Below, one piece after another: positions 3,187 through 58,000 of a DNA stretch of 64,000 bases. The first letter of the stretch is position 1, and each line of letters opens with the position of its first letter. Position numbers and translations under genes: made by a program. Origin of the DNA: an uncultured Planctomycetia bacterium (GTDB lineage: Bacteria > Omnitrophota > Gorgyraeia > 2-02-FULL-51-18); NCBI GenBank assembly GCA_964642015.1, contig CAZXLF010000005.1, positions 75,847-139,846 of the forward strand, written 5' to 3'. Under the pieces are notes generated by a model. It was not told the origin of the DNA. It saw only the letters and a list, made by a program, of their open reading frames with translations, and searched no databases.

Positions 3187-5112
3187 TTATTCGTACTGCA
3201 ATGTCACTATAAAATTTTCCGTATCTTTTTTTATAAAAGGAGGGAAAGGATCAAAAGGCGCGGCCTGCTTAACTCGTCGAATGGAATCTTCCCCGATCTC
3301 TGGACTTGATGATAAAACACTCTCAGGTTCTCCGGCGATCTCTCCGTCACGTTTAAGTCGAAAAAAAACTTTCGCCATTCCCTTTTTATCCTGGATATCA
3401 GAGCTCGGAATGCTTTCTATCTTCTTGACCAGATCTCCATAATATTTTTTCTTTTCGATTTCTTCCGTATTGCCGTCGGGCAATTCTAATTTCTTATGAT
3501 ATTCATCCTTTACTAGCTGTTCTTTGTCCAAATGAAACCGTGCTCCTTCTTTAGGTGTCATTTGACTCATATCATTGATGCCCTTTTCTGAATTGATCAC
3601 ATGCGGCGTCAAAAGGATCACTAAATCAGATGCATCCTGTTCATTGCTTTGATTTTTAAATCCATTACCTATGATCGGCATATCACCGATAAAAGGAACG
3701 CGTCTTTCAGTTTTGATCGATGATTCTTTCTTTAGACCACCTATAATGAGCGTCACCCCGTCCTTTACCCGAACTGAAGTTTCCGTTTCAGCAGTAGTAA
3801 CGATCGGTATCTTTTCTCCTTTGGCTGTTAATAAAGAATCATCCGCTGAACTCACTTCCGGCTTGATCTTCATCGTCACAAAGCCATTATCATTGATCGT
3901 CGGCGTCACATATAACTTGATTCCGACGTCAATGAAATTAATGGTCTCAGATGTAGTGACAACTCCCCCATCTCCGGTAACTGTGGTTTGTTGCGCATAA
4001 GGTTGACGTGTCCCTACAAGGATCTTAGCTTCCTGGTTATTTAAAACCGTTACTCTCGGGCTTGAAAGTATCTTTGTATCACCAACCGTTCGGAGTAGAT
4101 CGATGATGGATTTATATTCTCCCGGAGAAGTAGGTGTCGCTGTGGAAGACTGGGCTGTCACTCCTAGAAAGATTTTATTCACCGCATCTGTGCTGGGAAG
4201 CGCAGATTGCAGCCTCAAGTTCTGACGAAAAAAATATTCCCAGTCCACACCCATTTCAAATTTACTATTAGGCTTCACTTCTACAACTTGTGCATCAATC
4301 AATACCTGCGGAGATTGTTTATCAAAATTTTGGATAAGCTTTTCAAGAGCCGGCATTTTAGCCACATAATCGGTCACGGCGATTTGATTGGTCCGCTCGT
4401 CGATCCGAACAGATCCCACTCCTTTGGTGATTTCATCCTGGATCTTCGCTCCCAATTTATCCGCTTGACCGTAATAAAGCGGAAATATCTTCGTCGTGAC
4501 AGGCAAATCGATTTGATGAAGCACCTCAACCATTTTATCGGCTTTCAAAGGATCATCGATCAGGATCACTAAATTGGCATTTGCGTCCGGGATTATTTTA
4601 CCGAATGAACTTTTCAGCTGCGAGATCGTTTTCGCTGCCTCTTCCGCTTTAGCATATTTTAGCATTACCGTGCGTACGGCTTTCTTTTGATAACTATCTC
4701 CATGCAGTCCTTCGTAATCGCTTCTCGTCATCACATAAAAAATGCCGTCATTGTTTTCGTAGGCCAATTCGTTACTGTAGATCAAAATATCAAAAGCGTC
4801 TTGAAGACTAACATTTTTCAGGAAAAGCGTCACGCGACCGGTGACATTCTTCCCAACGGAAATGTTCATATTATAATTCGAGGCGAATATCTTAAGCACT
4901 TCTATGATATCCATACCACGCACATCGAGATTGATCTTTTCCGGCACAGGAGGCTGAATCGATGAGAGGCCCTTATCATTCGTCGGTAAAGAAACGGGCC
5001 CTTCGGCTGCGATGACCGCAGAAGAAAATAAAATCGCGACACTCGCAAAAATGATCGAAGCCGGTTTCAATCTCATGACTTTATATAGCTCTAATCTAAA
5101 GGGCAAGGTCAT
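3187..5112 (-). CDS. gspD: Outer-membrane secretin (T2SS GspD / T4P PilQ family).
   Basis: The N-terminus has an N0/STN-like segment (MDIIEVLKIFASNYNMNISVGKNVTGRVTLF). The C-terminus has the secretin core (SPRVTVLNNQEAKILVGTRQPY...GIKLYVTPTINDNGFVTMKIKPEVSS...DLVILLTPHVI). Confidence 0.85.
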   Translation of the reverse strand: MTLPFRLELYKVMRLKPASIIFASVAILFSSAVIAAEGPVSLPTNDKGLSSIQPPVPEKINLDVRGMDIIEVLKIFASNYNMNISVGKNVTGRVTLFLKNVSLQDAFDILIYSNELAYENNDGIFYVMTRSDYEGLHGDSYQKKAVRTVMLKYAKAEEAAKTISQLKSSFGKIIPDANANLVILIDDPLKADKMVEVLHQIDLPVTTKIFPLYYGQADKLGAKIQDEITKGVGSVRIDERTNQIAVTDYVAKMPALEKLIQNFDKQSPQVLIDAQVVEVKPNSKFEMGVDWEYFFRQNLRLQSALPSTDAVNKIFLGVTAQSSTATPTSPGEYKSIIDLLRTVGDTKILSSPRVTVLNNQEAKILVGTRQPYAQQTTVTGDGGVVTTSETINFIDVGIKLYVTPTINDNGFVTMKIKPEVSSADDSLLTAKGEKIPIVTTAETETSVRVKDGVTLIIGGLKKESSIKTERRVPFIGDMPIIGNGFKNQSNEQDASDLVILLTPHVINSEKGINDMSQMTPKEGARFHLDKEQLVKDEYHKKLELPDGNTEEIEKKKYYGDLVKKIESIPSSDIQDKKGMAKVFFRLKRDGEIAGEPESVLSSSPEIGEDSIRRVKQAAPFDPFPPFIKKDTENFIVTLQYE

Positions 5113-5689
5113 ATTTTTCCCCTTTATAGTTCAGTGTAACACGGCCGGAAGTCACCTTTTCTATCTGAAAGGAATCTATTGTATCTCCCTCTCTAACATA
5201 AAATACTTTTTGGATTTTCTTATTTTCGATCACCGCTTGCGGATTTTTTCCATCTATGACCGCGACTAAATTAAGATCTTTGAATGCCTCAGAGCTAGTT
5301 TGATTTGAGGCGGTTCCCGAATCAGCGCTTCCTCCTAGCGGTTCAAACACGTTCCTTCTAGAAATTTCGGCAATAAATGCTTGTTTTGACAAAGGCTCTT
5401 TCAAAGCGTTCGCGTCGTCCTGAGATGGGGAAGAAAAGCTTCTAGCATTCTCCCTGACATTATCGCTGGGTTTATAAGGAAATATGAATGTGTATACCAA
5501 AAATGATGCGGATAAAAAAAGAGCTAAAAAAATGATATTCTGCGGGTGAAGCCATTTGACTTTTCGCAAAAGACCTAAAGAGATTTGCTGATGTGGGGCG
5601 TACTCGGAGGCCGATCTCGCATCTTTCTTTTTTTCCTTCTCTCCGGCTCGGATCAGATGGAGAAGTTTTTCCTCTGGTGTCGGGCTCAT
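5096..5689 (-). CDS. GspC/PilP-like secretin-interacting protein (TM plus C-terminal beta domain).
   Basis: It has a single TM helix. The C-terminal roughly 60 aa (LVAVIDGKNPQAVIENKK...FQIEKVTSGRVTLNYKGEKYDL) look like a PilP/HR-type fold. The gene sits immediately upstream of the secretin with a 17-nt overlap. Confidence 0.4.
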   Translation of the reverse strand: MSPTPEEKLLHLIRAGEKEKKKDARSASEYAPHQQISLGLLRKVKWLHPQNIIFLALFLSASFLVYTFIFPYKPSDNVRENARSFSSPSQDDANALKEPLSKQAFIAEISRRNVFEPLGGSADSGTASNQTSSEAFKDLNLVAVIDGKNPQAVIENKKIQKVFYVREGDTIDSFQIEKVTSGRVTLNYKGEKYDLAL

Positions 5690-6507
5690 TATACGGCAAC
5701 CTCGTCACAGAGCACGCTGCGGACCAGTTCTTGATCAATAGACGATCTTTCTAAAATGATCGATTGCTTTAATGCATCATGACACAACATCGCAATACGT
5801 CTAGGGTAACCCTGGGTCTTTTCATAGATGAGCTGCACTGCTCCATCCGTGAACAATGGTTGTTTATCGGCGTAACCCGCCTTTTTTAAGCGGAACTCGA
5901 TCATACGAGCCGTATCTTTTTCATCGAGAGGATTGATCGTATATTTCAAGGCAACTCGATCCATAAAATTCCTAACCCGTTGAATCCTCTGAAAAAGTTC
6001 CATCTGGCCCATGATAACTAACTGAAGTAATTTGTAATTATTCGTCTCGTAATTCAAAAGCATTCTCAAAACTTCAAGATTTTCCGTCGATATTTTTTGG
6101 CTCTCATCAATGATTAGAATGATCACTTGATCTTCTTCCACGCCTTTTTGAAAAAGATATTTTTCTATCGCTTCCTTAAAATCGAGCGTCGAACGGAACG
6201 GCGGTTCAATATCGAATAATTTGGTAAGAGAAAAAAGGAATTGATATTCCGATTTGCATCCCGGATCCAGGATCATATGGAATATATAATTGGGGTCATC
6301 CTTAAAAGCTTTGATCAGCATCCGAGATAGAGTCGTTTTCCCGGTACCAACGTCTCCGAATACAAGATTGAGCCCCCGCCGAAGACGGATCGAAATTTCG
6401 AGGCGACGTAATGCAGTCTCGTGGCTTGTGGAATGGTAAAAAAAATCCGGATCCGGACTAGTTGAAAACGGCTCTAAATCAAGTCCTAAGGCTCTATAGT
6501 AACTCAT
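5689..6507 (-). CDS. ExeA/GspA-like AAA+ ATPase, cytoplasmic domain only.
   Basis: Walker A is GDVGTGKTT and Walker B is VIILIIDESQ. At 272 aa it lacks the TM and peptidoglycan-binding half of full-length ExeA. Confidence 0.6.
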   Translation of the reverse strand: MSYYRALGLDLEPFSTSPDPDFFYHSTSHETALRRLEISIRLRRGLNLVFGDVGTGKTTLSRMLIKAFKDDPNYIFHMILDPGCKSEYQFLFSLTKLFDIEPPFRSTLDFKEAIEKYLFQKGVEEDQVIILIIDESQKISTENLEVLRMLLNYETNNYKLLQLVIMGQMELFQRIQRVRNFMDRVALKYTINPLDEKDTARMIEFRLKKAGYADKQPLFTDGAVQLIYEKTQGYPRRIAMLCHDALKQSIILERSSIDQELVRSVLCDEVAV

Positions 6508-6715
6508 TTTTTATCTGCCGAATCGATAGCCCATCTTTTCTCATTCGACGGATCTTAAGGAGAACATGCACGCTATCTTCGTTAAAATAACGATAACCTG
6601 TTTCAGGACTTCGTGCCACCTCCTTAAAGAGACCATCCCTTAAGTAATATTTAAGAGTGTGAACAGAAAAACCTGTACGGCGCGCTAAATCTTTTAAAAG
6701 ATAGACTTCCTGGAT
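6494..6715 (-). CDS. Small MerR-family HTH protein (DNA-binding domain only) with an apparent non-canonical ATC start.
   Basis: Translated by eye: IQEVYLLKDLARRTGFSVHTLKYYLRDGLFKEVARSPETGYRYFNEDSVHVLLKIRRMRKDGLSIRQIKNELL. AGGAGG lies 5 nt upstream of the ATC. An in-frame TAG sits directly upstream, so no ATG/GTG/TTG start is available. The 3' end overlaps the exeA-like start by 14 nt. It is absent from the ORF track. Confidence 0.4.
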   Translation of the reverse strand: MQEVYLLKDLARRTGFSVHTLKYYLRDGLFKEVARSPETGYRYFNEDSVHVLLKIRRMRKDGLSIRQIKNELL

Positions 6716-6814
6716 AAAAGCCTCCTGCTATCACTCTCTGACCAGAGAGTATATCAAAAAAAGCAAAAATTAACAAAATTATTAAATTTATAGTTATTTA
6801 TACAAAAGGCAAAT

Positions 6815-7336
6815 CTATGGCGAGTACGGGGAATAGAAAACAGAAACGATAAAAGAAGCATCCAGGTTATTAGAACCTATTTGAGACCCAATCGATAATC
6901 TTTCTATTCGAAAACTCGATAACGGTTGATCGAGCTCAAATATAAAGCCTGAAACTTTATCCGCTTGCCCTCGTATCCGTAAATTGATCAATATCTGCTT
7001 AAAAGATTTAAGTTGTTTGACACTTTCGGCGTCGGGGCGTATTTCTAAGACTTCAACATTATTCTCATGAGCGATCGTTTCGATAGACGACAGAATATCG
7101 GATGATTCTTTGAAAAATTTCAATGCAGATCCAGATCCTGACGGAACTGATAGATTCTTTTGATATTGATGGTATTTGAAGATTCTTTTCTGAACGGTAA
7201 TGATTTCTTTGCCCATCTTGGAATAATGATCGATAAAAGGCGAAAGAGCAAATTGATAAAAAAAAGCTAGAATGATAACTATCCCAGTCGCTACAAGAAT
7301 ATACCGTTCTCTTTCTGACAGACCCTTTTTTTCCAT
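6815..7336 (-). CDS. gspM: T2SS protein M / PilO-like.
   Basis: 173 aa with an N-terminal TM helix. Size and position, directly after gspL, fit GspM. Confidence 0.5.
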   Translation of the reverse strand: MEKKGLSERERYILVATGIVIILAFFYQFALSPFIDHYSKMGKEIITVQKRIFKYHQYQKNLSVPSGSGSALKFFKESSDILSSIETIAHENNVEVLEIRPDAESVKQLKSFKQILINLRIRGQADKVSGFIFELDQPLSSFRIERLSIGSQIGSNNLDASFIVSVFYSPYSP

Positions 7337-14660: not shown

Positions 14661-14729
14661 AAAATCTGTAAATACCCTGATTTTAGGATGAAGAGATAAT
14701 AAGTCTCGGCGATGAGATCATATGGCTGC

Positions 14730-15029
14730 TCAATGCGGCTTGTTTTTCTCAAACCAATTCATGATCTGCCAGCTTATGCCATCAGAATATTCATGGTCCA
14801 ATCCGCCCAATATCATGAGCTTTATGGGATACTGCTGGTTTGTCAGAACACTTTTCATATATTCCGCTTGGCCGGGGTCGACAAGATGATCGTTCTTCCC
14901 ATGTAGAATAAGAACAGGAATGCGCCGACTTGAGGATGGGTCGGGACGGGCATGGTTTTCTAACCATTGATAGGAACCCGCGTGGCCTGCATGATAAAAA
15001 ATTGACCTTTTCCTGGGTGCACGGTGCCT
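14730..15029 (-). pseudogene. C-terminal remnant of an alpha/beta-hydrolase-fold enzyme, with no start codon.
   Basis: A 100-codon open frame bounded by TAA upstream and TGA downstream. It translates to ...RRIPVLILHGKNDHLVDPGQAEYMKSVLTNQQYPIKLMILGGLDHEYSDGISWQIMNWFEKNKPH. This is a hydrolase C-terminal region with no N-terminal half or initiator. Confidence 0.5.
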
Positions 15030-15049: not shown

Positions 15050-15562
15050 TTATGTGGCATTTATCTTTAATCCCGCCCGCTTGCATTCATAAAGAAAATC
15101 CGTTACTGACACATCGGTATCGATCCTTTGAGATTTGCCGGATGCTTTAACGACCAAAAAAGTAGGGTAGCCGGTAATTCCGAACTTTTTCATTAACCGG
15201 CTCTCTTGGTCGCCATCTATCTTTACCTTGACGACCGATCTTAGCGCGCTGGTGCCGCGAGAAGACCAAAGAATGTCCCTCGTGAATTGTTTACAATAAT
15301 GGCACCATGTGGCATAAAAATAAATGACGAACGCCTCACCGGTGATCTTTTGTTCTTCGACTGCTTTTTTATAGCCCGTCGAGTTTTCAAACCACGGATA
15401 GGATTTGCTTAACACCGGAGCAGGAGAGCTGGTCACGATCGGTCCTGAATCGCTCGGTGGATCCTTGCTATAGATGACCAATGTATCGTCATCTTGCGCA
15501 GCCAGAGCCAGTGCGGAGAAAAAAATCATGACGATAAAGGTCATGGCCGTTCTTTTAAACAT
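15050..15562 (-). CDS. Secreted thioredoxin-fold protein (TlpA/ResA-like).
   Basis: Signal peptide plus the WCHYC CxxC motif. 170 aa. Confidence 0.75.
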   Translation of the reverse strand: MFKRTAMTFIVMIFFSALALAAQDDDTLVIYSKDPPSDSGPIVTSSPAPVLSKSYPWFENSTGYKKAVEEQKITGEAFVIYFYATWCHYCKQFTRDILWSSRGTSALRSVVKVKIDGDQESRLMKKFGITGYPTFLVVKASGKSQRIDTDVSVTDFLYECKRAGLKINAT

Positions 15563-15635
15563 GATGCACCGTTGATGGTTTCATAAAAACTAATATACTA
15601 GACGCAGTTCGGTATACGGTATTTAAAAATATCTA

Positions 15636-15860
15636 ATTGCGGCGCGGTCCTCTCCCCCATTTGCTATATTCGACGAGGGGTTACTCTCGTTAGGACTCGT
15701 CGGCCGGAAAACTATATTCGGCCGAACCGCACCCCCTCCCGCGCACGTCGTCTGCGGCAGGCTTAAGGAAAGTTCATTTTTATCTTCAGCCGCAGAACCG
15801 AGGGGTGATGTGATTTATTAAGAACCCTCGGCTCCTGGGTCAGGGACGTTTCACTTTTTA
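15636..15860. ncRNA. GC-rich structured intergenic element, unassigned (candidate ncRNA or cis-regulatory leader).
   Basis: A 304-nt non-coding gap whose GC content is far above the flanking sequence. Perfect inverted repeats: CGACGAG/CTCGTCG, TCGGCCG/CGGCCGA and CCGAGGG/CCCTCGG. Direct repeats: CTATATTCG x2, CGAGGGGT x2 and a C5-TC motif x2. Confidence 0.3.
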
Positions 15861-15866
15861 TTGTTA

Positions 15867-16370
15867 TTATTTAATCGCCCTTAATAAAACTCTCCATTCG
15901 CCCATGGCTTTCTTATTTGATACGCGATCCAGAACCTCCGCACGAAAAACATAAATTCCAGGAGGATCTGTTTTTTCAAGCGTAAAATCAATGGCCGGGT
16001 CTAGCATTACAAAGCCTCTTTTTTTCATAATATGTTTATGGACATGCTGGTCAATTTGCTTCATAATTTTTTCGTTTTTAGGATTAATAACAAATAAGCT
16101 GCCTATCAAATCTGTACTTCCAAGTTTATTAAGGTCAAATCCTGATACCACGATACTAATATAAATTGTTTTATTAGGGCCAATCTCGTGAACTCTCTTA
16201 ATATGAATTGGATGTTCAGGACGAGTCGAAATCCATTCTTTTATATAGTCTGGAGTGTCTGCAGTGGCAACATAAACCGTTAAATTTGGCCCTGCTTCCA
16301 ATGAATAACCCGATGCAGGGAGAAAAACAAGACTTGATAAAATTAATAAAATTCGAATTAAGAAGATCAC
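15867..16370 (-). CDS. Small secreted protein, candidate second Rhs immunity protein.
   Basis: Signal peptide. AT-rich. Its start overlaps the upstream ORF's stop, and it lies downstream of the rhs C-terminus. Confidence 0.4.
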   Translation of the reverse strand: MIFLIRILLILSSLVFLPASGYSLEAGPNLTVYVATADTPDYIKEWISTRPEHPIHIKRVHEIGPNKTIYISIVVSGFDLNKLGSTDLIGSLFVINPKNEKIMKQIDQHVHKHIMKKRGFVMLDPAIDFTLEKTDPPGIYVFRAEVLDRVSNKKAMGEWRVLLRAIK

Positions 16371-16888
16371 GGTCTTCCACTTACTGCTACACGTATTTGA
16401 ACTGATTTATCTAATTTCGAAATCTGAGCATCAGGTTCTAAAACGGTTATCTTTACATACAAATTATCTGAGTTTCCTTTATACGGAATTGGAAACTCAT
16501 ACATTGAGAATTCTTTATACCTATCTCTTTTGTTTTCGGAACCAAAATAAGCTATTGGTTTTTCCACTATTACAGACTCTAATACGTGTATATCATTATA
16601 GAGTTCTATTAATAATCTCCCTTTGTAAATATAATCGATAGGAATACTCTCGGTATCTGAATAAAAACTAATCTGATAAATATCGTGATACTTCGCATTT
16701 AATTTATAGATTCGGTTAAAACCTTTTTCTGATAAATTAAAATTATCTTGGACAATGGACTTGTACAAATCGACCTTCGGAGCGATTGAGTTAAAGAAAT
16801 GTGCTAATCCTGGCTGGGAAGATATATACTTAAAACTGATTAAAAGAAGAATTACTGATATTAAGAAAAAGGATTTTTTATTAATCAT
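16367..16888 (-). CDS. Small secreted protein, candidate cognate Rhs immunity protein.
   Basis: Signal peptide. About 30% GC. The start codon overlaps the rhs stop (16888), the classic toxin-immunity arrangement. Confidence 0.45.
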   Translation of the reverse strand: MINKKSFFLISVILLLISFKYISSQPGLAHFFNSIAPKVDLYKSIVQDNFNLSEKGFNRIYKLNAKYHDIYQISFYSDTESIPIDYIYKGRLLIELYNDIHVLESVIVEKPIAYFGSENKRDRYKEFSMYEFPIPYKGNSDNLYVKITVLEPDAQISKLDKSVQIRVAVSGRP

Positions 16889-19800
16889 CAGCCTGAATTA
16901 CGCTGTATATCTAAAAGTAAATAATAAACCTCTCTTAACCTTTCCGCAAAATCTTGGCAATTATTCTTTTCTTTTCCATCCAATCCAAACAACGAAAAGT
17001 CTCCGGTTCTCACGATTTTCAAGGCCTCTCTCATAACATCATCGTTATAATGCCTGTTGTCTGTTCTCTCGTATTGAGATGGGTCTTCGTTGTAAAAAAG
17101 ACCGTTCGGTCCGAAGCCAACATTTGATGGTTGTCTTCCATCTTCAAAAAATCCTTGTTCATGACTCAATTCAATATTGTTCCAATCTAAAACGTCATTG
17201 TTAATTGCAATTGGAACATCGCTCAATTTTCTTTTGGCAAAATAAAATAAACCAAATGGGTCAATAAAGCTAGTCGGGTTGTTTTTTACATATATAAAGA
17301 AATTAACGCCCCCTATAAATTTTGCTGGGTCTTCAGTAATAAACCTCCCTACAGATGGATTATAGTATCTATTCCTGTAGTAATAAAGGTTCGTTTCATT
17401 ATCCCACTGTCTTCCCGTGAACTGGAACTCATTATTCACAGAGCCTGTCTTGGATCTTGTATCTCCGAATACATCGTACGTATAGGTGCCGACAGATGTG
17501 CCGCTCAAGTTCGTGAGCATGCTCACAGACCCTAGGCCGTCGTAGATATAATAGGTATCCTGCGCTCCGGTACGCAGCGAAAGGGTCTCATCTATCCTCG
17601 GCCCATGGATATAAGACCTCTGAATATTGTCGGCGCTATTGGTCTCAAAGAGCGTCTCGAAGCCGTCGTAGTAGGTCCTTGTGACCTTGGTATTGACGCT
17701 CTTTTCTACCCTTCTCCCCAGCCCATCATAGGTATAGGTATCGGTATTGGTGCCTTGAGTGGCTTGTTTCAAGCGGTTCTCAAAGTCATAGGTGTAGTTT
17801 CTTGTGACAGCGTTGTTGGTGTTCTTCTCAGAGATCAGATCCCCGTTGGCGTCGTAAGAATAGAGTTTATTTTTGGAGGTGAGGAGACGGTTGGCGGCAT
17901 CATAGGTGTAAGTGTCGGATACTTTGCCGTTCTTCTTTAAAGTAAGACGATTGCCGACACCGTCATAGCTATATTCGAGCTTTGTTCCCGCGGGATAAAC
18001 CACAGAAGTAAGTCTATAGTCATTGTCGTAGGTGTAAGTGTGTGTGCCTTCATTATCCATCAAGGACAGTCTGTTGCCTACGCTGTCATAAGCATAGGAG
18101 AAGCTCGCGGTATTGAGATTTGAGCTTGTGTTTTTGTAGATGAGACTGGTGAGTCTATTGGCATTGTCGTAGGCATAGGCGGCTTGGATATTATTCGGAT
18201 AAGTAAGCAGCGTTCTCCTGCCTCCCGCATCATAGGCATAATTAAATACCTGGTTCTTCGGCGTCGTGAGAGACGTAAGCCGGTTCATGACGTCATAGGC
18301 ATATGTAGTCGTCCCGACGGTTGAAACCATCGTAGCTGTGTTCCCCACCGCATCATAGGTATACGACATTGTCTTGCCTTTCGGGAAAGTCACCTGGGAA
18401 AGCCGATTGAGCTTGTCATAAACATACTGTGTAAGTCCTGTGGCATCGGACATCGAGGCAAGATTTCCCGCGGCGTCGTAAACATTCGTCACAGTGGACG
18501 CGTCGGGATAAGTCGTCGCAAGAAGCCGGTTCACGGCGTCATAAGAATAACTTGTTTTATTTCCATTGGCGTCTGTTCTTGAAATAAGATTGCCCACGTT
18601 ATCGTAAGCGAATTTTGTGATGTTACCCAACGCGTCCTGCTCGCTGACCTTTCTGTCAAAAGCATCGTAGACGAATGTGGTAAGACCGCTGTTAGCGTCC
18701 TTGACGCTCAAAAGATTTCCGACATTATCATAGGTAAGCGTCGTGATAGCGCCCATAGGATCTTTGCTTGTGATCAACCGGTCAAGCGCATCATAAGTAA
18801 AAACGCTTTGATTGTTATCCGCGTCCGTCACCGAAAGCACATTTCCGTGAGCATCATACGTGAACGTCGTGACGTGATTCATCGCATCGGTGATCGTCGA
18901 AGGGTGGCTGGAAGCATTGACATTGCCCTGGTCCGAGCATGAACTGCATCCGCTGTCTCCGGATCCAAGCGGCGCGCCGTAAGCGAATTTCGTCATGTTG
19001 CCGTTGGGATCCGTCACGCTAAGAAGACGGTCATCATCGTCATAAGTCATATTGGTGGATGAGCCGTTGGCGAACTGGATCTTCAATATCCTATCACCGG
19101 CGTCATACGTAAAAGCAGTCGTTCTACCCAGAGTGTTCGTGACCGAAAGAAGCCGGCCGACGACATCATAGTTGAAGCTTGTGGTGTTCCCCAGGGCATC
19201 TGTCTGAGACACGAGATTCCCATAACCGTCATAAGCGTAGGACGTCGTATTGCCCAAAGGATCAGTCTGAGTTAGAAGCTCATCCAGATTATTATAGGTA
19301 GAAGTCGTGATGTGTCCCGAAGCATCTGTCAGTTTGGTGACATTTCCGTGGGAGTCGAAATCACGGCTCGTGACATGACCATTGCGGTCTGTTATCGACT
19401 GCCAGAAATTATAAGAGCTGTTATAAGAATAGGCCGTGATGTTGCCAGAAGAATCGGTATTCTGATTAAGGTTCTGATCTGAACCATAAGCCAAGGTCGT
19501 CGCCCTCCCTAACGCATCTGTCTTCTGTGTCATGAGGTTCGTATTGGGATCATAAGAATATTTCCACACACCACCCGTGGGATCCAAAGCTAGCGTGCCA
19601 AGACCGATCTTAAAATATTCGTAACTCCAATTATTTTTCAGCTGATCGGTCATCGTCGAAGTGCCGAGCAAATTGTTATAAGAAAATTGAATCGTGGAGC
19701 CGTCGGGCTTGACTTCTTTGATCACCTGGTCAGTACTATTGTAAGTATAGTTGGTGGCATAGCCCATCGCGTCCGTCACAGTTGTGATATTATGCGGATC

Positions 19801-20685
19801 AAACGGATCAGTGTAGCTATAATTAACTTTTCTATTTAATGGATCTTTGACCGAGATCAAATTGTTCAATAAATTATCGTAATTATAAGTCCAGATTCGG
19901 TTCAACGGATCGGTCATCTGGCTTATTTTGCCGTTGGAGCCATAAGTGAAATTCAAGCTTCGTCCTAAGTCATCGCTGATGGAATTTTTGAAGCCGTTCG
20001 CATCATAACTAAATTTGATCGAATGCCCGCTTCGGTCGCTTATAGAAGTAAGACGTGTGATAAAATTTTGATCGAAATGGTAGGTCGTTCCATGAGGTTT
20101 TGCGTAAGCAAAAGTTCCTTGGAGCGGATCCCCTCCTGTCGAATACCACGAGACATTTCTTTGGCCATCTGTAAAAACCACCGGACCCGGAACGATCTGC
20201 GTATCGGTCAACAATAGAAAAGTAAGGAGTGAGCTGTCTTGATCCCTTACGGTCACCGATGAGCCAGCTTTCATGGTTCCGCTGATCACAATAAAATTTG
20301 TGATAAGTTCAATATCAAGTGTTGAAGTCCAACCCGCGCCGAATACGCCGCTAAAACCGATCTGATTCGAATAACTGCGGATCAGCTGAAGCGAAAAACC
20401 ATTTCTTGATGTGCCGGGTCCCGGGATCTTGACATCTGTCACAGGAATGTAGAGCTTGCCGCCGGTAAGCAGTACCGGATCTACAGGGCAAGTGGTATCA
20501 ACCGGAGGGTTAAAACAATTTGGACAAGACGGAGGGCAATCTTTAAGATTATAAGGTTGAGCAGTAGTAAAAGAAGTGGCGGTAGGGCAACCAGCGGGCG
20601 GTGATTGATTGGCCATCGCAAAATTCTGCAGGCCGAATGTCAGAACACAAAGAAAGCTGATGAACTTAAGGGAACGGTTTTTCAT
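16888..20685 (-). CDS. rhs: Rhs/YD-repeat polymorphic toxin with a Sec signal peptide and a variable C-terminal toxin domain.
   Basis: Signal peptide MKNRSLKFISFLCVLTFGLQNFAMA. Dozens of YD repeats (YTYDAHGNVLSVTD, YDALDRLITSKD...). The Rhs core end reads YYNPSVGRFITEDPAKFIGGVNFFIYVKNNPTSFIDPFGL, followed by a 116-aa tip. Confidence 0.9.
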   Translation of the reverse strand: MKNRSLKFISFLCVLTFGLQNFAMANQSPPAGCPTATSFTTAQPYNLKDCPPSCPNCFNPPVDTTCPVDPVLLTGGKLYIPVTDVKIPGPGTSRNGFSLQLIRSYSNQIGFSGVFGAGWTSTLDIELITNFIVISGTMKAGSSVTVRDQDSSLLTFLLLTDTQIVPGPVVFTDGQRNVSWYSTGGDPLQGTFAYAKPHGTTYHFDQNFITRLTSISDRSGHSIKFSYDANGFKNSISDDLGRSLNFTYGSNGKISQMTDPLNRIWTYNYDNLLNNLISVKDPLNRKVNYSYTDPFDPHNITTVTDAMGYATNYTYNSTDQVIKEVKPDGSTIQFSYNNLLGTSTMTDQLKNNWSYEYFKIGLGTLALDPTGGVWKYSYDPNTNLMTQKTDALGRATTLAYGSDQNLNQNTDSSGNITAYSYNSSYNFWQSITDRNGHVTSRDFDSHGNVTKLTDASGHITTSTYNNLDELLTQTDPLGNTTSYAYDGYGNLVSQTDALGNTTSFNYDVVGRLLSVTNTLGRTTAFTYDAGDRILKIQFANGSSTNMTYDDDDRLLSVTDPNGNMTKFAYGAPLGSGDSGCSSCSDQGNVNASSHPSTITDAMNHVTTFTYDAHGNVLSVTDADNNQSVFTYDALDRLITSKDPMGAITTLTYDNVGNLLSVKDANSGLTTFVYDAFDRKVSEQDALGNITKFAYDNVGNLISRTDANGNKTSYSYDAVNRLLATTYPDASTVTNVYDAAGNLASMSDATGLTQYVYDKLNRLSQVTFPKGKTMSYTYDAVGNTATMVSTVGTTTYAYDVMNRLTSLTTPKNQVFNYAYDAGGRRTLLTYPNNIQAAYAYDNANRLTSLIYKNTSSNLNTASFSYAYDSVGNRLSLMDNEGTHTYTYDNDYRLTSVVYPAGTKLEYSYDGVGNRLTLKKNGKVSDTYTYDAANRLLTSKNKLYSYDANGDLISEKNTNNAVTRNYTYDFENRLKQATQGTNTDTYTYDGLGRRVEKSVNTKVTRTYYDGFETLFETNSADNIQRSYIHGPRIDETLSLRTGAQDTYYIYDGLGSVSMLTNLSGTSVGTYTYDVFGDTRSKTGSVNNEFQFTGRQWDNETNLYYYRNRYYNPSVGRFITEDPAKFIGGVNFFIYVKNNPTSFIDPFGLFYFAKRKLSDVPIAINNDVLDWNNIELSHEQGFFEDGRQPSNVGFGPNGLFYNEDPSQYERTDNRHYNDDVMREALKIVRTGDFSLFGLDGKEKNNCQDFAERLREVYYLLLDIQRNSG

Positions 20686-23810: not shown

Positions 23811-23848
23811 CAAAAATAAAAAATGGCTTGCTATCATTAAAGCAAGCC
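23811..23848 (-). terminator. Rho-independent terminator downstream of tRNA-Ser(GCU).
   Basis: 8-bp perfect stem GGCTTGCT/AGCAAGCC with an 8-nt loop. On the minus strand it is followed by ATTTTTTATTTTTG. Confidence 0.6.
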
Positions 23849-24076
23849 ACTGGGTGGAATTTTGCTTGTTCCATATATTCCTTAACTGTACAACATCTGA
23901 GAAGTGTACTGAGCGATCTTGTATTTGTCAATAGACGAATTGATTTTTTCTCAAATTTTTATCTTAAATCCAAATATAAATCACTAATAATTACCAATGG
24001 TTAACTACACAGAGACCGGGACTTATTCATTTTTAAAAAGAAAAATCCCTTGAATAAAACCCAAGGAGTAAATCAA

Positions 24077-54121: not shown

Positions 54122-55168
54122 TCAAGGCGTTGCAGGTCTCGGGACCGCGGCGTCCTTATCGGAAGAAGACTCCTGAGGAAGATTAAAACCGAAAAGCTTG
54201 AAAGCCTCCTGGATGGATTGGGATTCCACGAGGCATCTCTGATAGATCTGGTCATCAGTGATCTTTTTCTGCTGATAATCCAAAAGGACCGATAATGGCA
54301 CAATCAATTTTTTCCTGTTTAGATAATCCAGAATCTCTATTTTATCGAAATCTTTAAACGCATAACTTTTCAAGACGTCGCTTGTTATTCTGAATATGTT
54401 CATAACAATTTTTTTAGGATCATCATTTTTGATCGATATTACCGAAAATCGAAAAGCCCTTTTACCAGGTTCATAATCAAAGAGTCCATCCAATAAAATA
54501 GCATTCCGCGCGATCTCATCAGGGTTGGCATCTTTTGAAAAACTAAAACGTATCCTTTGCACGATCTGATCACTGAGGAAACTTTCCAACTTCACTTCCT
54601 TCAGTACAAAAGAATTTGGATTCTGGGCATCCCGCTTATACCTACCCTGACCAAACACAGTGCGGTTGATCGATTCCTCTATGCCTATCGCGTCCGCATT
54701 GGCTCGTTTGGTATCGTCTAAGGAACGTGTGATCACTAATTCATTCTCATGCTGCTTATCGCGGATAACGACCGTGCAGAAATCTAAAGGAAGATCCGTG
54801 GACAAAGCCACACGCGTTACCGCTTGCATAACCTTGCCCATTGTCTCATGAACATCTTTGGAGACCTGTCCTTTTGCATCAACAATGGAATCAACGTAAA
54901 CAACCGCACCGACAGTCTTGCCTACAACGCGGGCTATACTATTGATGTTGTACTCTTTTCGATCGATATCTTCAATGGATTCGGGAACTTTGGTGGCTGG
55001 ATAACTGTACTTGGGGCCACAGCTGGTGAGAAAAAAGATAAGAGAAAGTAAAAAAAAGACGGCAAAAACCAGACTCTTACCGTCTGACCTCTGTCGTCCG
55101 ACCTTTAAATGAACGCTAAGCTTATTTTGGAACGTATTTTGCAGCAACTCGCGGATTCGATTTCCCAT
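54122..55168 (-). CDS. Hypothetical lipoprotein (lipobox LTSC). Start uncertain.
   Basis: Signal peptide with Cys (FFLTSCG). About 330 aa with no recognisable domain. The 5' end overlaps the ftsH-like stop. Confidence 0.5.
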   Translation of the reverse strand: MGNRIRELLQNTFQNKLSVHLKVGRQRSDGKSLVFAVFFLLSLIFFLTSCGPKYSYPATKVPESIEDIDRKEYNINSIARVVGKTVGAVVYVDSIVDAKGQVSKDVHETMGKVMQAVTRVALSTDLPLDFCTVVIRDKQHENELVITRSLDDTKRANADAIGIEESINRTVFGQGRYKRDAQNPNSFVLKEVKLESFLSDQIVQRIRFSFSKDANPDEIARNAILLDGLFDYEPGKRAFRFSVISIKNDDPKKIVMNIFRITSDVLKSYAFKDFDKIEILDYLNRKKLIVPLSVLLDYQQKKITDDQIYQRCLVESQSIQEAFKLFGFNLPQESSSDKDAAVPRPATP

Positions 55169-57977: not shown

Positions 57978-58000
57978 GGGGCGCACGCATCGTGCGCCCC
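57978..58000. promoter_or_regulatory. Perfect 10-bp GC-rich hairpin (GGGGCGCACG-cat-CGTGCGCCCC) in the hisG/ppiD divergent region.
   Basis: On the minus strand it sits 37-59 nt upstream of the hisG GTG and is followed by GATCTTTATCT, consistent with a candidate attenuator. A minus-strand TTGACA-N17-TACACT promoter lies about 30 nt further upstream. Confidence 0.3.

Follow-up and report, generated by a model that had tools for sequence, protein, structure and literature searches.

The question raised by this locus is whether a 304-nt gap packed with inverted repeats (15563-15866) encodes a structured RNA, marks the boundary between two transcription units, or is leftover DNA. It was addressed within a 64-kb window, i.e., the whole stretch of DNA that was analysed, which belongs to a metagenome-assembled genome (MAG) of an uncultured Candidatus Omnitrophota. 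The gap separates two minus-strand open reading frames (ORFs), one for a thioredoxin-like protein (15050-15562) and one of 167 aa (15867-16370), and the minus strand carries both of these flanking genes as well as nearly all other genes of the window. An earlier reading made from the letters of the sequence (henceforth called the sequence-only reading) had delimited the gap in the same way and described it as non-coding; both statements were correct, and the GC-rich core of the gap (15636-15850) contains no ORF of at least 20 aa.

To the right of the gap, which is upstream in the direction of transcription, lies a Rhs-imm1-imm2 operon with overlapping stops and starts. It comprises a Rhs protein of 1265 aa (16888-20685, minus strand; RHS_repeat at E = 4e-118, DUF6531), imm1 (173-aa ORF, 16367-16888, minus strand), and imm2 (167-aa ORF, 15867-16370, minus strand, 35.5% GC), which closes the operon. 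Because both small ORFs match no Pfam family, they are putative immunity genes named from their position alone. The 167-aa version of imm2 corresponds to the Prodigal calls on Logan contigs, where it has a GTG start and overlaps the imm1 stop codon; in the NCBI annotation, imm2 apparently has just 65 aa, beginning at an internal MKQIDQ..., so that the start of imm2 given here is provisional. To the left of the gap, the thioredoxin-fold gene (15050-15562, minus strand, 170 aa) matches Pfam Thioredoxin at E = 8e-13 and encodes a WCHYC motif and a hydrophobic N-terminus, the latter of which suggests export. Its start is placed 6 codons later in the NCBI annotation, yielding 164 aa. Beyond this gene follows a gspE/gspF/pseudopilin/secretin operon. 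The thioredoxin-fold gene is an orphan-like, fast-evolving gene adjoining this T2SS/pilus-like operon.

Based on composition, the gap consists of three parts. A 16-nt AT-rich spacer (15851-15866, 19% GC) adjoins imm2 and forms the end of the low-GC Rhs-CT/imm1/imm2 module. It is followed by the 215-nt GC-rich core (15636-15850, 55.8% GC), which holds all four hairpins described below, carries no ORF, coding signal, or copy elsewhere, and is separated from the imm2 stop codon by about 16-17 nt. The third part is a 73-nt AT-rich stretch (15563-15635, minus strand, 33% GC) located just upstream of the thioredoxin start codon, which is presumed to contain the promoter and 5' UTR of this gene. The GC content amounts to 48.4% for the whole gap and 44.2% for the 64-kb window, and the core ranks in the top 0.6% of the window's 215-nt windows; a similar GC content is reached at roughly ten sites within coding sequence of the window. 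The description of the gap as far above its surroundings in GC content holds relative to the immunity-like genes (30-36%) but only moderately relative to the thioredoxin gene (45.6%). The low-GC block (15851-17247, minus strand) includes the C-terminal 119 aa of the Rhs protein after DPFGL (36% GC), imm1 (30%), and imm2 (35.5%), compared to 46.5% for the Rhs core and 46-49% for the neighbouring genes. No Pfam family was matched by the Rhs C-terminal domain, imm1, or imm2, and the composition of the block fits a horizontally exchanged toxin/immunity cassette. The GC-rich core begins exactly where this low-GC module ends.

All three of the perfect 7-bp inverted repeats named in the sequence-only reading were recovered, and a fourth pair of 8 bp that had not been named (TCTGCGGC/GCCGCAGA at 15751/15789) was identified in addition. 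The corresponding hairpins are henceforth called H1 to H4. H1 (15671-15702) consists of a perfect 7-bp stem (CGACGAG/CTCGTCG at 15671/15696) with an 18-nt loop, and its 3' arm shares 3 nt with the 5' arm of H2. H2 (15700-15725) has a perfect 7-bp stem (TCGGCCG/CGGCCGA at 15700/15719) that encloses a loop of 12 nt; pairing on the plus strand continues by one G-U and one A-U pair to give 9 bp, and the hairpin can close to an 8-nt loop there. H3 (15751-15796) has the perfect 8-bp stem and a 30-nt AT-rich loop. H4 (15795-15834, minus strand) has a perfect 7-bp stem (CCGAGGG/CCCTCGG at 15798/15825) and a 20-nt AT-rich loop, and is the first structure past the imm2 stop codon. On the minus strand only, H4 gains two G-U pairs, which results in an 11-bp stem (dG -18.2 kcal/mol, z -4.5). 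All stems are GC-rich, the loops are AT-rich in three of the four hairpins (17-33% GC; 50% GC in the loop of H1), and the four palindromes have no consensus in common.

Regarding direct repeats, the two copies each of CTATATTCG and CGAGGGGT reported before are exact. The 9-nt repeat CTATATTCG occurs at 15664-15672 and 15712-15720, i.e., with a spacing of 48 nt, and its copies enclose H1 together with the 5' arm of H2. The reported pair of C5-TC repeats was inexact, as CCCCCTC is present at 15732 only, and the sequence at 15652 is the mirror form TC-C5. The mutually exclusive pairing of ACCCCCUC with either copy of GAGGGGU that had been proposed is limited to 6 bp or has to accommodate a bulged C, since the exact complement ACCCCTC is absent. 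Tandem repeats were not detected in the gap using Tandem Repeats Finder.

As the region was picked for its repeats, all repeat and hairpin statistics are post hoc. As many inverted 7-mers as observed arose in dinucleotide shuffles with P = 0.006-0.015 (post hoc). Shuffles that preserve local composition were run with four block sizes, and for every block size 0 of 1000 contained four hairpins (mean 0.3; also post hoc). The 64-kb window contains 25 GC-rich perfect hairpins, 7 of which are intergenic, and 4 of these 7 are located in the core. The four-hairpin cluster exceeds chance in these post hoc tests; for the direct repeats, the comparison with shuffles was marginal (P = 0.03-0.09).

Folding had been suggested as a check in the sequence-only reading, and placed the whole gap within the range of shuffled sequences (z -1.47 on the minus strand, -0.97 on the plus strand). 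The same was found for the core under several null models (z -1.1 to -1.8), i.e., fold stability beyond that of shuffled sequence was not seen for the entire gap or core on either strand. Outlying z-scores were obtained only for sub-segments that were hand-picked around the palindromes. On the minus strand, H3+H4 (15746-15850) reached z -4.2, with 0 of 300 shuffles being as stable (z -2.0 on the plus strand), and the core half nearer the thioredoxin gene reached z 0.07. For H2 and H1+H2, the plus strand gave the better fold (z -4.2 and -3.5, respectively). Since the minus strand is the better one for H4 and H3+H4 but the plus strand for H2 and H1+H2, folding does not single out one strand.

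A search of the whole window against Rfam 15, whose coverage includes curated riboswitch classes, 6S, tmRNA, RNase P, and SRP, resulted in only four tRNAs at gathering scores, all of them outside the gap. Within 15400-16000, just three eukaryotic matches at chance level were retrieved at E<=10 (snoR18, mir-57, HOXB13-AS1_2), all far below gathering, and ARAGORN predicted no tRNA or tmRNA in the gap. The covariance-model scan that had been recommended hence assigned the gap to no family, in agreement with the earlier inspection by eye, which could not match it to tmRNA, RNase P, SRP RNA, cobalamin, or TPP. The tentative label of a 6S-like ncRNA was not borne out by the Rfam scan, and the rod-like 6S fold is absent. 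The same applies to the proposed riboswitch or attenuator, for which Rfam 15 gave no match even at E<=10, a hairpin followed by a U-tract is absent, and the alternative pairing is limited to the 6 bp mentioned above. The layout expected of such elements was likewise rejected, given the absence of terminator/antiterminator helices and the 73-nt AT-rich stretch between core and start codon.

Several other identities were considered and rejected. An intrinsic terminator was not found in the gap by scanning either strand, U-tracts are absent, and the loops are 12, 18, 20, and 30 nt long. Elsewhere in the window, four terminator-like hairpins are present (23822-23851, 24047-24067, 55057-55085, and 57978-58000, all on the minus strand) with 9-13 bp stems and 3-8 nt loops. 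Three of the four have clear T-tails and adjoin a tRNA gene or gene end, and these represent canonical terminators (minus-strand 23851-23822, 24067-24047, and 55085-55057); the hairpin at 57978-58000 is located between divergent genes and has a weaker tail. As canonical short-loop terminators with T-tails are used elsewhere, the core hairpins are not ordinary terminators. An integron attC site was dismissed because GTTRRRY and RYYYAAC are absent from both strands of 15540-15900, and a CsrB/RsmZ-type sponge because 4 GGA motifs occur per strand vs. 3.0 and 4.4 expected from composition. On the plus strand, a sigma-70-like match (TTGATG-16-TATACT, 15572-15599) was found at chance level (3 found vs. 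3.5 expected in 1.5 kb), and no convincing promoter or terminator marking a separate gene was detected in the gap.

Other copies of the locus were retrieved by exact-protein look-ups only on three Logan contigs (runs SRR12313477, SRR12313479, and SRR12313480), which are 100% identical over up to 12.5 kb and stem from the same strain. Look-ups of protein P0001 and of the right-end protein gave no match. In a word index of 5.8 billion proteins, the thioredoxin protein had no relatives beyond its own sequence (as the shorter NCBI annotation). A gspE-anchored scan of GTDB genomes yielded 80 loci, the best of which was 65% identical and belonged to Omnitrophota; the thioredoxin gene or anything resembling the gap was absent from all 80. 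Omnitrophica bacterium GWA2_41_15 (isolate Hainich-Omni-XXI) is the closest relative, and here the gspE homologue (locus L003, positions 3364-7044) lies within a 1226-aa ORF that has a long N-terminal extension or represents a fusion. Neither a thioredoxin gene nor a Rhs cassette is located upstream of it, and synteny with the window is therefore lost.

For the core itself, no second copy was found in the 64-kb window (blastn-short, nhmmer --max), and no homologues were found in plasmid and phage collections (blastn). Two stem-pattern scans of JGI metagenomes resulted in 0 matches. Of two such scans of viral collections, one had no match and the other two matches, which were regarded as chance since they were situated inside coding DNA of contigs with 65-71% GC and did not extend past the pattern. 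Literature searches on the run accessions and on Omnitrophota with Rhs or type IV pili returned nothing relevant. Across the collections searched, the core thus appears to be a single-copy, lineage-restricted hairpin cluster between two genes.

Most likely, the core is ordinary in kind, i.e., an operon-boundary structure or a leftover. Of these, we tentatively put first, at a confidence well short of even, that the core acts at the level of RNA, as a structure in the transcript of the minus strand that sets a boundary or confers stability. This is suggested by four perfect GC-rich inverted repeats within 215 nt, far above the shuffles and the rest of the window, and by the combination of GC stems with mostly AT loops, which makes selection for hairpins likelier than decayed coding sequence. 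As both flanking genes are on the minus strand, the core would be transcribed together with the Rhs operon unless transcription stopped earlier, and H3+H4, the pair nearest to the stop codon, folds well on this strand. The position of the core at the end of the low-GC module, followed by the 33% GC stretch before the thioredoxin gene, points in the same direction, as does the unrelated hairpin cluster that another Omnitrophota genome has at a different operon boundary (described at the end). Counted against a boundary structure are the lack of a U-tract after any hairpin and the loops of 12-30 nt, the whole-core fold within the shuffle range together with the mixed strand preference, and the perfect Watson-Crick arms, which suit a DNA-level palindrome equally well. 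Moreover, the other copies are all 100% identical, and the statistics are post hoc.

If the core acts as such a boundary structure, the polycistronic Rhs-imm1-imm2 message would enter it about 17 nt past the imm2 stop codon and would fold there into H4 and H3, perhaps together with H2 and H1. The GC-stemmed hairpins would then mark and protect the 3' end of the message; they could block 3'-exonucleases, provide a site for processing, or weakly terminate transcription in spite of the missing U-tract. The horizontally acquired low-GC toxin/immunity module would in this way be uncoupled from the thioredoxin gene, which would be expressed from signals in the following 73-nt AT-rich stretch.

REP/BIME elements of enterobacteria, which exemplify stabilising stem-loops of intercistronic regions or 3' UTRs, occur in many copies that have short loops and follow a common consensus. 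The core resembles them in that it also consists of GC-rich palindromes between co-directional genes, directly past a stop codon and without U-tracts; its location in a co-directional gap downstream of a stop codon is that of a REP/BIME element, and by analogy a role as exonuclease barrier or operon boundary is plausible. It differs from them in that its palindromes have no consensus and loops of 12-30 nt, and in being single-copy in 64 kb and absent from the collections searched. Like intrinsic terminators, the core has GC-rich stems a short distance past the final gene of an operon, but it has no T/U-tract, and its loops of 12-30 nt compare to 3-8 nt in the same genome. Similar to riboswitches, attenuators, and 6S RNA, the core is GC-rich, non-coding, located upstream of a gene, and contains several helices; unlike these, it matches no covariance model, and its stability is within the shuffle range.

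A close rival, at slightly lower confidence, is that the core is non-functional relic or junction DNA, either an older gene in decay or a recombination scar beside a swapped-in Rhs-CT/immunity module, in which case the hairpins would either be incidental or stem from template-switch mutation. Such an origin agrees with the single-copy nature of the core and the lack of relatives found, with its direct contact to the composition boundary of the low-GC module, and with its 56% GC, which resembles the coding DNA of this genome more than its other intergenic DNA. Furthermore, two stop-free frames of 63-64 codons span the core, yet none of the frames has a coding signal. The best codon-usage score across six frames was -0.005, a value that more than 95% of real genes exceed and that falls in the out-of-frame range when six frames are tried. 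Five frame pieces of the core had no match in Pfam at E<=10, and the plus-frame translation had no match in the word-index search. For the minus-frame translation, HMMER was run in full against 1.84 billion representative proteins and retrieved only three tandem-repeat proteins; these were considered artefacts because each was matched by several weak stretches. A degenerate gene remnant, which the sequence-only reading had named as the alternative that would refute a structured element, is consequently unsupported by Pfam, codon usage, word index, and HMMER. In addition, a coding relic leaves four perfect palindromes with GC stems and mostly AT loops unexplained.

A gene remnant in the vicinity is counted in favour of relic DNA. 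Directly past the thioredoxin stop codon, a stop-free stretch of 99 codons (14730-15026, minus strand; ...RIPVLILHGKNDHLVDPGQAEYMKSVL...ILGGLDHEYSD...WFEKNKPH*) matches positions 176-229 of 245 of Pfam Abhydrolase_1 at E = 4e-4, which is below the curated cut-off, and also DLH and Peptidase_S9. It comprises the C-terminal third only and lacks the N-terminal part and start codon, which identifies it as what is left of a truncated alpha/beta-hydrolase gene that lies between gspE and the thioredoxin gene. The remnant indicates that the neighbourhood was rearranged, which raises the prior for relic DNA. That the core is the N-terminal half of this truncated hydrolase was rejected: no frame of the core contains hydrolase motifs such as GxSxG, and a full-length homologue for comparison was not retrieved. 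A 64-aa ORF predicted on a Logan contig in the opposite orientation (window 14712-14906, plus strand) overlaps the hydrolase remnant and is probably spurious.

It is unlikely that the core is a stand-alone sRNA gene of about 200-250 nt on either strand, belonging to an undescribed lineage-restricted family. In favour of such a gene, the core is a GC-rich non-coding island with a significant hairpin cluster in a 44% GC genome. The plus strand in particular offers a sigma-70-like match that would put the transcription start near 15606, the best folds of H2 and H1+H2, and a T-rich run past the core at 15848-15871. However, the promoter match is at the chance level given above, an intrinsic terminator is absent on both strands, and z-scores of -1 to -1.8 for the whole element are weak for a stable structured RNA. 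Rfam had no match, a second copy or homologue was not found, and a CsrB-like sponge is not indicated as GGA is not enriched. More broadly, we consider it improbable that the core encodes an undescribed structured RNA confined to this lineage of Omnitrophota, be it a four-hairpin sRNA or a new cis-acting boundary element between the Rhs module and host genes.

The perfect Watson-Crick arms, whose G-U extensions have no consistent strand preference, would also suit a site acting at the level of DNA, i.e., a conserved 'landing pad' downstream of Rhs CT/immunity modules for their exchange by recombination, or an array of protein-binding palindromes. The low-GC CT/immunity module borders the core exactly at its 3' edge; this position and the 9-nt direct repeats (CTATATTCG, 48 nt spacing) are in line with this possibility. 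We nevertheless regard it as quite unlikely, because spacers of 12-30 nt are long for sites of dimeric proteins, attC core sites are absent from both strands, and the four palindromes have no common consensus; in addition, further copies are absent from the window, and related Rhs loci for comparison were not found. Least probable, and very doubtful, is that the core serves the thioredoxin gene as a cis-regulatory leader, in the sense of the riboswitch or attenuator proposed in the sequence-only reading: the core does lie upstream of this gene on the same strand, and GAGGGG (15675, 15800) could pair alternatively with CCCCUC (15733), but these pairings comprise only 6 bp, Rfam riboswitch and leader families were unmatched even at E<=10, no terminator hairpin with U-tract precedes the gene, the gene-proximal half of the core has a z-score of 0.07 on the minus strand, and due to the 73-nt AT-rich promoter-like stretch the core may lie upstream of the thioredoxin transcription start.

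At present, the core is a single orphan locus, and its value is that of a flagged candidate to be revisited in closer genomes or metatranscriptomes. If its hairpins are functional, they would provide a first look at how a swapped-in toxin/immunity cassette is insulated from its neighbours in an uncultured member of Omnitrophota, and would add to hints that GC-rich hairpin clusters are located at operon boundaries of this phylum beside classical terminators. Such clusters may be a habit of Omnitrophota. The second example was observed in another Omnitrophota MAG (JAMXCX010000063.1; locus L004, positions 1154-1271), where a GC-rich cluster of three strong short-loop hairpins is located upstream of gspE. 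It lies between an ORF containing a PDZ domain and gspE, has an AT-rich promoter-like stretch behind it (TGCTATAAT), and had no match in Rfam. Like the core, it consists of GC-rich hairpins in a lower-GC genome, is placed at an operon boundary with an AT-rich promoter-like stretch next to it, and is not represented in Rfam. The two differ in that they have no sequence similarity, and the 7-8 bp stems, long loops, and weak overall z-score of the core compare to 11-14 bp stems and 2-4 nt loops in the gspE-associated cluster, which folds at -73 kcal/mol (z -5.2).
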